Source of the DNA: Candidatus Margulisiibacteriota bacterium
GTDB taxonomy: Bacteria > Margulisbacteria > Marinamargulisbacteria > UBA817
Reading direction: 5' to 3'
Length of the DNA: 32,018 bases
Assembly (NCBI GenBank): GCA_038109885.1
Contig: JAYNJH010000004.1
Coordinates: forward strand, 1-32,018
The translations under genes and the position numbers were made by a program. The notes beneath the pieces were generated by a model that was given only the letters and a program-made list of their open reading frames with translations, was not told the DNA's origin and made no database searches. This document shows, in pieces, positions 18,628 through 28,690 of the stretch (within the stretch, counting starts at the first letter, position 1; every line of letters starts with the position of its first letter).

Positions 18628-21600
18628 CTATTTCCTGGTTTTATCATACAATCTTAATGCATAAAAACCAACGGCAATTCCCAAAATAATTACACCAAAA
18701 ATCTGGAAAATTCCCAACCATATCCCTACATAATTAATTTGATTTATGTAGCGCCCCATCACCTTCAATTGCTTATCTATCATTTGATATTGATACAAGT
18801 TATTTTGAACCATTGTGTCCAAAGCTTTCTTTTTTAACCTTAGTGAGTCATCCAACATGGCTATTTGACCATTAAGTTGAACCAATAAGCGATCAAAGTT
18901 CTCTAGGCTAGGGATCGTTGTTTGAGAAATATCCAGTTGCAATCCATCTGTTTTCTGAACTAAAAACTTAAGCGCTGAATAGGCAACCCCATCCGCATCT
19001 GATGCCGTAATAAATCGCTCGTCTTCACCAATCTTAAAGGCCCCCTTGAATTGCTGAGCCATCGGACCAATATGTGCTACACCTCGATTAAATACATATT
19101 CCCAACGTGATATATTTAATGCCATTAAACTCTCAAAAATCATGCGGTGATCAACTGGCATAAACTGAGTCTTCAAATTTCGATCAGACACCATGCTCCA
19201 ACCACCCCCTTCTGGCGTAGCCGAAACCACCATTCCAGCACCCGTATGAATATGAACCCCATTCGGCGCATTTAAAACCACAGAATCATTTGCAGCAACA
19301 TCGATCCCCTGAATCGATGCATTTAATACTACATTTTGATCACCCAAAACTTGAACATGATCACCAATAACGAGGTTCGCATTCCCTTTAATACGATTAT
19401 AATCACCTAATACTCGCTGATGATTACCATTAATTTCAATATCATTGACACCTAAGGTATAATTTTCATCCCCAGTTACCGATCCCCTTTGACTTGATAT
19501 AAGTGAATTACGATGACCCTTGAGTGTTAATTTTTGAACGGATGCCAATTGATTCTCTTGACCAAACATTCTGAGTTCCGTTGCCCCATCCACCGAATTC
19601 GATTTCCCATAAATCATCGAATCCTTCACATCTTGAATAAAAACGTGATTACCATTTAAATCTAAACTCGTTGCATTATGAATAAAAGCAGTATCAATGC
19701 GCCCCTTAAAATCCGAAACTCGATTCATGTAGATATCATCACCAACCAAATCCAAACGATTACCAAATCTTAATCGATGCTTCCCACCACGAATATGCGC
19801 ATTTTCAACCTGAACATAATCGCCCAACTCAGCATTAATTTCACTATCAGAAATAAAATCAAAGGCACTTTGATTCGCCATAATTCGAGATTTTTTGACA
19901 TCCTGAACCTGCAATTGCGATCCTTGAATCCTTGCAAGTTCAGCTTGCTGAATTGTTAAATCTTGACCATCAATCCAACTATTATCGCTACGATAAATCA
20001 CTGAATCGCTGACTTGAATTGATGATGATGCCACCTGCCCCAAAAAAACATCATTAAGCTGTAATTGATTTTCACCTGAAGCAACCGGCATGCCAATTCC
20101 AAACGCTGACTGTCGAACCACACGCCAAGATGTCCCATTATAAAATCGAAACCCAGTACTATCATATTCCATGGTACCAGCCAAAGGCGCCGAGTTAATT
20201 GAATCGCCTATCGTAATAGCGGAACCTAAATCAAACTGATGCTGCGAATTTCCTAAAGAAGTTGAAATCGCCATTGGCGAATGCAAATAAAGCTGATTGG
20301 CCCCATCACCAAACATAAACTCACCAGAGCCTTTAAGCTCAAAATCAATGGACTTGGACGAATTTTCAATACTTAATTTTACGGGGTTTGCCCCCTCATC
20401 TTTAATTCGGACATCCGCACTAACATCCAAACTTCCAACTTCTAGGGTATAAGAAAAATCACGTTCAATCTGAATCAAATTAGGACTATCATAAATCCCC
20501 AAATTGGATTTATCATCCAAATAAATATTCGTAGATGAATTAAATGACCCCGCCCCCAAGGTAATAATCCGGTGAGATAATAAACTAGACAACCCCGTCC
20601 CACCATTCGCTAGTGACAACTGGCCTGAGAATAATTCACTTGTAATTTCACCTGATTTTATTTTTGACGAAGTAACTTGATTATTTGGGATATGATTTGC
20701 AAGAATTATCTGATCTTTAATATGTGAAGTTCCGATGGACCGATCTGTAAAATTAATCGATGCAACACGGTAATCCTGAAGATTTTCTGAATAAACACTA
20801 TTATTGTCAACCACATCAGAGTTGAAAAACTGATCTGGAATGTAATCATTAATGTTATTATCTTTTAAGATATTAAAGGACAACGAATTTTTCATAATAT
20901 TACTTGAGCCAATGGCATTTGGAGAAATTGTATCCGCATTAAAAATGCCAGTAACAAATCGTGAAATCTCCAACTGGTTTTCCGCAAAATGTGTCAATCG
21001 AACTGAATTAGGGTAAATATTTCTTGATGAAATCACCGCCCCATCCAAATGAATTGATGAAATCATTTTAGCTGCAAAGTCTTTTTCAAGTTGACCAACA
21101 TTCGTTAAATCTTCTCCATTTCCTTGTAAAGTTCCATAAAGTATTTTTAAATTTTCAGGCGTCCATTCCATAACACGCTGGTTGTCTTTAATATGAATGG
21201 AATTTGCTTTTAATAAGTCATTACCTAAGAAGAATTGATTAATCGAAAACAGAGTTGCATTTAACGTTGTTGCCCGTAAGCCCCCATCAAAATGAGCCGA
21301 CCCCTCGACATGAAATTGATGAACAGGAAAATCAAGTCCAATGCCAATACGATAATTTTGACTAACCAATTGAATATTCTCACCATAATCAAACCAACGA
21401 GAAGCCTCAAAAGTAAGTGGTCCATATAAAAGGTCCACCCACTCTTTGGGATGCTTAATTCGTAATGAATCAGATTCCCAACGTATCGAACCTGTAACTT
21501 CAGTTTCTTCATAAGCCAACTTAATTGCACCATTCACATCAACATGAGTTTTGGGTTCTTCAATGCCTATACCAATATATTTCTTATCTCGATCAATCTT

Positions 21601-28300: not shown

Positions 28301-28690
28301 TCTTGCTTTATTGGCTTCTTTGGAACGAATCGTATAAGGCGTGGAATTAATCGGAAAAGTCAAATTATGCTGTTTGACACTAATACTAACTTTTAGATTG
28401 GGATCATCAAAAATAGAATTCACCAATAACGAATCTTTACCACCAATCACAATTTCACTAACACCATTATGAAATGGAACATTGCGAACCACTTCTTTAT
28501 AAATAATTTCGTCAGTATCTGAAAGCAATCGAACCGTTACCGTCTGATTACCTGTAACTGGATTTTTCTCATAATTAAATACGGCATTAAACTTAACTTC
28601 ATAAGGAATATCCGCCATTGTTAACGGGGAAATTTGGAATAAAAAGAAAAAGATTATCAATCGTTTGGCAAGTGAATAGTAAAATTTCAT
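25310..28690 (-). CDS. Fibre paralogue A: secreted tail-fibre-like protein with an S74 domain, coiled coil and C-terminal TM anchor
   Basis: 1126 aa.
- Signal peptide: MKFYYSLAKRLIIFFFLFQISPLTMA|D.
- Landmarks: RVGVNTLTPEVSLDINGVLRV (about aa 146), Ile/Val-periodic repeats about aa 320-460, IARGGTSKTSF (GGT 473-475).
- Beta-helix-type repeats, e.g. GGKGHLIRGDQHISLRGDAHHIDANRSVAIGDHIQIDHDDVVL.
- S74 module: HISDESMKMGKQPVD...WVYKNQEHVKHLGPMAQDF...IDADGVLLATIKGV (Ser codon 25886-25888).
- About 85 heptad-rich residues, then a TM helix LIVFFFVGVLCGLIGF (25346-25393) and a basic tail KIKQRIQERKS. Confidence 0.8.
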   Translation of the reverse strand: MKFYYSLAKRLIIFFFLFQISPLTMADIPYEVKFNAVFNYEKNPVTGNQTVTVRLLSDTDEIIYKEVVRNVPFHNGVSEIVIGGKDSLLVNSIFDDPNLKVSISVKQHNLTFPINSTPYTIRSKEANKARRVDNESIVKFLETERRVGVNTLTPEVSLDINGVLRVQDILPSDELSNGVFYWDGNKNMFLVYRNGVWNSMSWIPEPQDRSKWALYNSPITIESTKNVGVGLSPNSYALAVTKNMKITSQGTVGGNLDIFGSVLLPDGKGFSTAANLYSPAILFNTSANSWSQGNLTFSGVLTGNGSGLTQLNHFGDKTFETKHFADALVLTENVINQSIQSHHIIANSVQLSHLKQNQVTGNWIEDYSLTSVQIASAAIQTHHMRKSQISSEDIKLNQFVKSKFKDDSIQTNHIVDGQITGIKILTANVLSQHLVTQSITTQKIKDRVLEGRHVPLNSIPISNYNDVFTIARGGTSKTSFLNYGILYSDASGQYNTNDNILMLKDGLLGVGGVPDSTSLLTLNSTQNARLGISADDEKQPKLIVQNSIASWNFYVDTLGDFRIDKGQDVVLKMTSQGNLGVGNAAPSEVLSLNGPMVLGPAVGVGEPGSIRYQDGQFSIFKSSWVPITSAAISKREFKSDQLDQLIASSVLFSSESDLIGQQMMVQSVQDTKVWGNTLVLSDVLSSKLFGQFSFFQSINQSQLNSLFSTSQFILNTVSDSENSTMAYIHDSQLNLEGSNVSHLVDSDANMVDSTVLFSTSANLEFIKSDLGFSNHVSVNASNASIVQVNHLVGEIKDSRVQFSSKVNAELVQSELSFLDDVDVRANGSSISHAQNSVFDGQGQCVLGGKGHLIRGDQHISLRGDAHHIDANRSVAIGDHIQIDHDDVVLINSSAYPLSSSHPGEVRIQADGGVKIRFSDDSLALMSGDDGWGHISDESMKMGKQPVDSIQIMNKFRELPIQYWVYKNQEHVKHLGPMAQDFYRIFNYGNSDRIIHGIDADGVLLATIKGVFSNLNQIHQLLDSNSLALIKNQQKITDYSDQLAKMSKKVSVLDQKYQQHQYLLKQFNEDNQTQSVMIDYIKSALFKLNLQHKLHQLKTKLIVFFFVGVLCGLIGFKIKQRIQERKS

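Follow-up and report, generated by a model that had tools for sequence, protein, structure and literature searches.

In phage spikes and in MyRF, the peptidase S74 or intramolecular chaperone autoprocessing (ICA) domain (S74/ICA) is a textbook case of a chaperone that makes its chains fold as homotrimers. Three adjacent paralogous genes whose products end in this domain, here called A, B and C, lie in a 32,018-nt stretch of a Candidatus Margulisiibacteriota metagenome-assembled genome (contig JAYNJH010000004.1, positions 1 to 32,018; hereafter the window). At the family level, the products are solidly identified as S74-terminated, probably Sec-exported bacterial fibre proteins that resemble the mosaic adhesive trimeric (MAT) fibres of Bdellovibrio. 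Their comparative record, read from sequence, suggests that A, B and C co-assemble 1:1:1 into one heterotrimeric fibre, a reading to which we assign a probability of about 55%.

The closest described cellular counterparts are the MAT fibres of Bdellovibrio bacteriovorus, which include an S74 subgroup (e.g., Bd3182; Caulton et al. 2024, PMC10769870). As published, these resemble A, B and C in being chromosomal bacterial proteins of ~1,000 aa with a Sec signal peptide and then a beta-rich domain (both putative here), in having a long tail-fibre-like shaft with loops of the V-G-G/N-x-x-x-P-x-x-x-L type, and in placing a beta-helical region ahead of a C-terminal S74 chaperone/protease with an SDxxxK motif. 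The N-domain that follows the MAT signal peptide is conserved, beta-rich and ~130 aa long (PMC10769870). The systems differ in their organisation. MAT proteins form a set of 21 paralogues regarded as separate trimeric fibres, and the words 'operon' and 'heterotrimer' do not occur in the published text (PMC10769870), whereas here exactly three genes with overlapping junctions are kept as a unit in a different phylum. Unlike in MAT proteins, a transmembrane (TM) anchor follows S74 in two of the three chains, and the region before S74 is modelled as a single-chain beta-roll of 15-residue turns, not as an intertwined triple beta-helix.

The ICA of MyRF (7dc3, PMC8326128) shares with the present proteins a Ser-Lys dyad, and its trimerisation is driven by a C-terminal triple coiled coil of the kind predicted here, the fold match being that of the B model. 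In MyRF, as in A and C, a TM helix comes after the chaperone, so that cleavage, which is predicted here, frees an N-terminal trimer from the membrane. However, MyRF is a eukaryotic membrane-bound transcription factor that forms a homotrimer and releases its DNA-binding domain to the cytosol and nucleus, while the fibre set free here would be periplasmic or extracellular and one of its three chains has no anchor. We have seen no description of such an ICA-TM helix order in bacterial S74 proteins. Phage S74 fibres and spikes, such as K1F endosialidase (3gw6/3gud) and T5 pb1, have in common with A, B and C the autocleaving C-terminal chaperone (PF13884) and shaft modules found in tail-fibre PHROGs, but they are homotrimers encoded by single genes of phage genomes and have neither signal peptide nor TM anchor.

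YadA-like heads (Hep_Hag) also consist of 14-15-residue repeats that form one single-chain beta-roll per subunit, and in the YadA trimer three such rolls are packed side by side. In trimeric autotransporter adhesins the beta-barrel anchor trimerises, whereas here there is no barrel and trimerisation would proceed via S74. Assignment to the trimeric autotransporters (type Vc) was considered and rejected, as the C-terminus consists of S74, to which A and C add one alpha-helical TM segment, and has no barrel anchor. Pfam gave no match to YadA_anchor, a four-stranded beta-barrel, in A, B or C; Hep_Hag had no match among the window proteins, the only beta-roll match being a weak one to LbR_Ice_bind. 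C1q is an example of a heterotrimeric fibre made from three adjacent paralogues. If real, the A:B:C heterotrimer would be, to our knowledge, the first heteromeric member of S74/ICA and the first bacterial case of membrane-tethered ICA release. The literature searched describes no heterotrimeric S74 fibre, in agreement with a first-pass annotation made from the letters of the window, though a heterotrimeric virophage fibre is known (PMC12724248). In virophage DSLV2, three consecutive gp37-like paralogous genes encode a 1:1:1 heterotrimeric fibre, as established by co-purification and modelling (PMC12724248). Both loci present a conserved set of three adjacent paralogous fibre genes of similar length. 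The DSLV2 fibre differs in being small (complex of ~58 kDa) and viral rather than cellular, and in having the T4 gp37-tip fold and no S74.

The family-level identity of A, B and C follows from the Pfam matches to S74, the PHROG matches in the shaft and the modelled C-terminus of B. Peptidase_S74 (PF13884) is the sole domain above threshold in the three proteins, scoring 25.5 bits in A, 41.1 in B and 27.5 in C (gathering cut-off, 22 bits). Its model begins exactly at the serines proposed in the first-pass annotation as nucleophiles, Ser935, Ser942 and Ser941, respectively (935-985 in A). These open the dyad motifs SDESMK in A (Ser935/Lys940), SDQSIK in B (Ser942/Lys947) and SDRNLK in C (Ser941/Lys946). 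SDxxxK is kept at the homologous position in 27/27 orthologues examined from the nearer relatives (clade I, defined below), and the more distant clade II proteins have one SDxxxK at the matching distance from the C-terminus. An AlphaFold2 (AF2) model of B 885-1102 (218 residues; predicted local distance difference test, pLDDT, 80) has MyRF ICA 7dc3 as its best match in the Protein Data Bank (PDB; prob 1.00, TMt 0.51-0.54), with 3gud and 3gw6, intramolecular chaperones of phages, next in rank. When the PDB was searched by sequence, either B or a profile of the C-terminus as query yielded spurious helical designs and no true relatives, and NCBIfam gave no match. Signal-peptide-like N-termini, in line with the proposed Sec signal peptides, occur in all three proteins and were recognised by hydrophobic segments and AxA-like sites rather than called by a predictor.

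The three chains share one architecture. In A, the putative signal peptide is followed by an N-terminal beta domain (~31-113), a VGVNTLTP loop at 147, a tail-fibre-like shaft (~300-640), a beta-roll of 15-residue repeats (~648-882), S74/ICA, a heptad helix (996-1098) and, at the C-terminus, a TM helix (~1100-1120) that leads into a basic tail. C ends in the same way, with its TM helix at ~1100-1120 and a basic tail; B stops at the end of the coiled coil and lacks a TM anchor in all lineages. The AF2 models, which are of single chains and do not represent the trimeric state, are moderately confident for the N-terminal beta domain of A (31-113, pLDDT 67-82) and highly so for its beta-solenoid (~648-882, 15-residue turns of a single chain, pLDDT >90); they also show the long helix at 996-1098 and the terminal TM helix. 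Confidence in the shaft is low, as expected for a chain that needs its trimer partners to fold. A Foldseek search with the model of the whole A chain returned generic beta-solenoids (pentapeptide repeat proteins, P22 tailspike; best E ~7e-4), which were not used for classification.

Residues ~300-470 of the shaft match tail-fibre PHROGs; a search for tail-fibre domains had been suggested in the first-pass annotation. A profile of the N-terminal 640 residues matches >12,000 proteins, mostly giant fibrous proteins that repeat the shaft module, and the module is also present in phage-type tail-fibre proteins. A homologue search with P0035 returned only phage-like fibres sharing the repeat, and P0035's own paralogues were not among them. 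For the shaft of B (residues ~298-584), the sole matches in phage genomes are weak (25-27% identity, E 8e-6 to 6e-4) and fall on hypothetical proteins of P-GSP1 and P-SCSP2, two podophages of Prochlorococcus, so that marine cyanophage proteins share this module with B. Landmark positions counted by hand in the first-pass annotation were right to within 1-2 residues. The GGT motif lies at 473/470/469 (A/B/C), the first capping loop at 147/138/145, and a loosened capping-loop expression finds copies at 147, 227, 508 and 579 in A, at 138, 504 and 578 in B, and at 145 and 221 in C. The spacing of some copies deviates by 1-2 residues from the published V-G-G/N-pi-x-x-P-x-x-x-L consensus.

The strongest competitor of the heterotrimer, which we regard as unlikely, is that the proteins form three independent homotrimers (A3, B3 and C3) with their own specificities, linked only through tandem duplication and a shared promoter. 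The full architecture and a separate Ser-Lys dyad in each paralogue speak for it, as do the homotrimers formed by all characterised S74 proteins known to us and by MAT fibres (PMC10769870, PMC8326128). However, arrays of adhesin paralogues normally vary in copies and tips, whereas here number, order and overlaps are fixed over deep divergence. Full-length relatives are found in single-cell and metagenome assemblies of Marinamargulisbacteria, TARA ocean samples included. They were recovered by an alignment-based scan of genome contigs; a single-protein scan returned none. The 17 loci recovered include 11 distinct complete triplets. Nine form clade I (the window, L001, L002, L004, L006, L009, L010, L012 and L015), and two far more distant ones form clade II (L016, 2285-13846, and the JGI 3300072015 contig). 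All 11 complete loci hold exactly three paralogues in the order A-B-C with junctions overlapping by 4-16 nt, and none has one, two or four copies; the survey of relatives suggested in the first-pass annotation thus returned a single arrangement, an outcome that favours the heterotrimer. Every clade I locus has a B/C overlap of 4 nt, and reading frames are intact over ~1,100-1,290 codons. Most loci, both clade II triplets included, have their home between nadB and gltA. In L004 different genes flank the same triplet upstream, so the triplet moves as a unit. On this comparative evidence, the triplet is an ancient, obligately linked operon module that is fixed in the Marinamargulisbacteria core genome.

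This constancy is maintained at low sequence identity. The weak mutual similarity noticed by eye corresponds to 21-24% identity in pairwise BLASTP, collinear from end to end (A-B, 23%, E 5e-63; A-C, 22%, E 3e-49; B-C, 21%, E 5e-37). The best match of each orthologue is its own paralogue class. Mean orthologue identity is nearly equal for the three proteins (A, 40.6%; B, 41.0%; C, 39.9%; range 29-82%), and paralogue identity is ~20%, whether the pair comes from one genome or from two. The triplication is therefore old, and recent gene conversion is not seen in clade I.

Length is held most tightly in the beta-roll, measured between two invariant Gly landmarks in 47 clade I proteins (17 A, 14 B and 16 C). 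The roll is 165 aa long in 17/17 A, 12/14 B (164 in the other two) and 16/16 C, although the paralogues are only 22-24% identical there and bear no sign of conversion, which speaks against three independent homotrimers. An apparent shortening of C by one roll repeat (150 vs 165 aa) was an artefact of alignment placement; a second alignment gave 165 aa in all C. In clade II, where the solenoid consists of YadA-head-like repeats (GG..N.v.G.yS.v), the roll measures 253 and 262 aa in clade IIa (measured in two of the three genes, the third encoding 1201 aa) and 351, 366-367 and 369 aa in clade IIb. The difference in length between the clades sits essentially wholly in the roll and changes jointly in all paralogues. 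The strict length register claimed in the first-pass annotation thus holds exactly in the beta-roll and only approximately in the shaft, where B has nine residues fewer near column 429 and 11 more near column 513. Small indels of the paralogues coincide in lineage, position and sign in 12 cells, where permuting lineages predicts 4.1 (p=1e-4) and permuting bins 6.2 (p=0.012). Cases in point (A/B/C) are -9/-13/-10 in the post-S74 helical region of L004 and +8/+6/+9 in L015.

In solved S74/ICA domains a triple coiled coil of C-terminal helices drives trimerisation. In MyRF ICA this helix is the main driver, and single mutations at a or d positions stop both trimerisation and cleavage (PMC8326128). 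In A, B and C, the corresponding helices share one heptad phase, and conservation of the core layers was scored over 10-11 orthologues per paralogue. Layer a1049 is Val/Ile in A, Gly/Ala in B and Ile/Val in C; a1056 is Tyr, Asp/Asn and Leu/Ile; d1059 is His/Asn, Leu and Lys (9/10); a1070 is mixed, Glu (10/10) and Asn (9/10); d1073 is Gln in all three; and d1080 is Ile, Leu and Gln. In one layer, mostly Tyr in A (6/10, otherwise aliphatic) is set against Asp/Asn/Gln/His in B (11/11) and aliphatic residues in C (10/10), and a Gln of C (9/10) is counted among the conserved asymmetric layers. Such complementarity of large, small and polar core residues is the pattern expected of a chain-selective heterotrimer and would be unfavourable in B3 or C3. 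A B3 core would hold three invariant Glu, and a C3 core three Lys, within the trimerisation helix. By contrast, the core of A is almost wholly apolar and looks capable of forming a homotrimer. The S74 coil is followed by a TM helix and a basic tail always in A and C and never in B, in all clade I lineages, and a B3 homotrimer would lack the membrane tether of A3 and C3.

Combining these features, we consider it about an even chance that the proteins form an obligate A:B:C S74 heterotrimer sorted by polar core layers, tethered via two of its three chaperones and freed by triple autocleavage. In such a scheme, the overlapping stop and start codons would yield similar amounts of A, B and C from one mRNA through translational coupling, and each chain, given its signal peptide, would be exported by Sec. 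In clade I, the C-terminal helix would act as a stop-transfer segment that holds A and C in the inner membrane, leaving B free. Trimer formation would then start, as it does in MyRF and phage endosialidase, from a parallel three-stranded coiled coil of the S74/ICA helices, and the paralogue-specific core residues may favour a mixed A/B/C bundle. From there, folding would run toward the N-terminus, first through three equal-length, YadA-head-like rolls lying side by side and then through the shaft. The conserved Ser-Lys dyad of each chain is predicted to cut off the chaperone, giving a fibre of ~930 residues per chain. By analogy with Bdellovibrio MAT fibres, the fibre may attach to the cell surface via its N-terminal beta domain and serve as an adhesin.

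The comparative results fit an A:B:C heterotrimer without proving one; every comparative test that was run was passed, and none spoke to refute it. Several observations nevertheless weigh against it. All characterised S74 proteins known to us are homotrimers. The 21 Bdellovibrio MAT paralogues are likewise treated as separate homotrimers (PMC10769870). The chemistry of the coil gives limited discrimination: charged a/d residues number 1.2/12 in B and C vs 0.7 in control S74 proteins, a modest excess, and g-e' electrostatic scoring of homo- and heterotrimeric coils was uninformative, the mixed trimer not being favoured. Clade II proteins have no TM anchor, so the asymmetry between A/C and B is not general. 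No more than two or three lineages supply the correlated indels, and many others have no counterpart among the paralogues (C +6/+7/+6 in L010; B +8 and C +12 in L015), as independent homotrimers would allow. In a further locus, L013 (ERZ28548058), at least 10 frameshifts break up the end of B and the whole of C (14860-19054), while A, nadB and gltA remain intact. Long-read indel errors are likelier here than decay, because the pieces keep normal orthologue identity (32-69% to L009_C; 51% for the intact A to L009_A and 45% for B to L009_B), the flanks are intact and the contig name indicates a polished long-read assembly.

Clade II adds a further point on this side. Its proteins are only ~20-23% identical to A, B and C in paralogue-matched comparisons, and region-wise bootstrap trees were built from Poisson distances, the Kimura distance being undefined at such divergence. 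In the N-terminal half, bootstrap values for pairing with a clade II gene are 91% for B (gene 2), 54% for A (gene 1) and 31% for C (gene 3), and a grouping of all clade II proteins receives 2%. In the roll and S74 trees, the clade II paralogues instead group together (100% and 67%). Clade IIa genes 1 and 2 are 55-67% identical in the roll/S74 half, but only 26-28% so in the N-terminal one. In clade II, evolution has thus been concerted in the C-terminal half, with a conversion boundary near the start of the beta-roll, and independent in the N-terminal halves. Gene conversion alone, a neutral route, could explain the matched roll lengths of clade II, a point in favour of independent homotrimers. 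Concerted C-terminal evolution would also be expected if three trimerisation modules must remain compatible.

Mixed or higher-order assembly is improbable in our judgement. It would comprise trimers of variable composition (A2C or AC2, with B as an accessory or cap) or homotrimers bundled laterally, for example in a surface layer or as a spacer. Equal rolls and correlated indels require only a shared length or contact, not 1:1:1 stoichiometry; the anchor is common to A and C and absent from B; and the concerted C-terminal evolution of clade II would keep chains interchangeable. Nevertheless, the simplest correspondence is that of three genes to a fold of three chains, the asymmetric layers set all three paralogues apart rather than dividing them into two classes, and no lateral bundle of S74 fibres is known to us. 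A prophage tail-fibre remnant, domesticated or in decay and without a cellular role, would share the S74 domain and shaft modules of phage tail fibres, but was rejected on genomic context and is very improbable, given that no phage genes occur in the window or in any related locus, that the same nadB-gltA site is used in most lineages (the flanks of L004 differ), and that the ~1,100-1,290-codon frames are intact, carry predicted Sec signal peptides and remain under constraint at 29-82% orthologue identity.

The features of the locus are collected in the table. The gene order, strand, lengths and ATGA overlaps reported in the first-pass annotation agree with the open reading frame (ORF) list and the junction letters. 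At both junctions a GGAG-type Shine-Dalgarno sequence, for B and for C, lies within the preceding ORF, and a search for terminators within the A-B-C block found none that was convincing.

Table. Features of the A-B-C locus and its immediate neighbours (window coordinates).
Feature	Position	Strand	Length	Remarks
Gene A	25310-28690	minus	1126 aa	ORF list
Gene B	22005-25313	minus	1102 aa	ORF list
Gene C	18628-22008	minus	1126 aa	ORF list
A/B junction	25310-25313	minus		ATGA stop/start overlap, context ...tcATGAgac...; AGGAG 9 nt 5' of B start
B/C junction	22005-22008	minus		ATGA stop/start overlap, context ...aaATGAaaa...; GGAGGG 5' of C start
C-terminal codons of A with TM helix	25310-25397	minus	~28 codons	
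C-terminal codons of C with TM helix	18628-18715	minus	~28 codons	
nadB-like L-aspartate oxidase	28809-30326	minus		118 nt upstream of A; neighbour kept in most relatives
Citrate synthase (gltA)	17328-18647	minus		directly 3' of C; neighbour also kept in relatives

The ORF calls of C and citrate synthase share 20 nt (18614-18647 region). This overlap is probably an ORF-calling artefact, because gltA of the relatives encodes 424-431 aa vs 439 aa for the ORF, and a start at Met12 would lie 13 nt past the C stop. The remaining window genes are housekeeping genes (SLT, proS, carB, purF, carA, tatC, nadA, an AAA ATPase and a YggS-like gene), and no phage or mobility genes were found in the window, which bears out the view that the genes between nadB and gltA are chromosomal and cellular rather than part of a prophage. 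Identity is 100% between A and P0001, annotated as 'tail fiber domain-containing protein [Candidatus Margulisiibacteriota bacterium]', and between C and P0020. Between tatC and nadA lies a 726-aa ORF with a TTG start (10258-12438, minus strand), uncharacterised apart from a borderline PP2C_2 match (23.9 bits, cut-off 24). A 105-aa ORF on the plus strand (24572-24889), antisense within the B coding region, is most likely spurious. In L013, extra fibre-like genes stand beside the triplet, upstream of nadB (1245-7356). One product, of 344 aa, joins a Shufflon_N (type IV pilin-like) N-terminus to an S74 domain. A second, of 903 aa, begins with a region similar to the A/B N-domain (tblastn, 28% identity, E ~3e-7), and a third, of 754 aa, has no domain match.

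A natural heterotrimeric S74 protein, if the A:B:C reading is true, would show how the module can encode chain selection, and its core-layer residues would offer a simple rule set for the design of asymmetric fibres. The locus also extends MAT-like adhesins of the 'phage fibre on a cell' kind from the predatory Bdellovibrio to the Marinamargulisbacteria, an uncultured marine lineage related to Cyanobacteria. We know of no description of the cell surface or lifestyle of this group. Should the fibre prove to be an adhesin, it would point to a conserved habit of the Marinamargulisbacteria of attaching to particles, hosts or prey.

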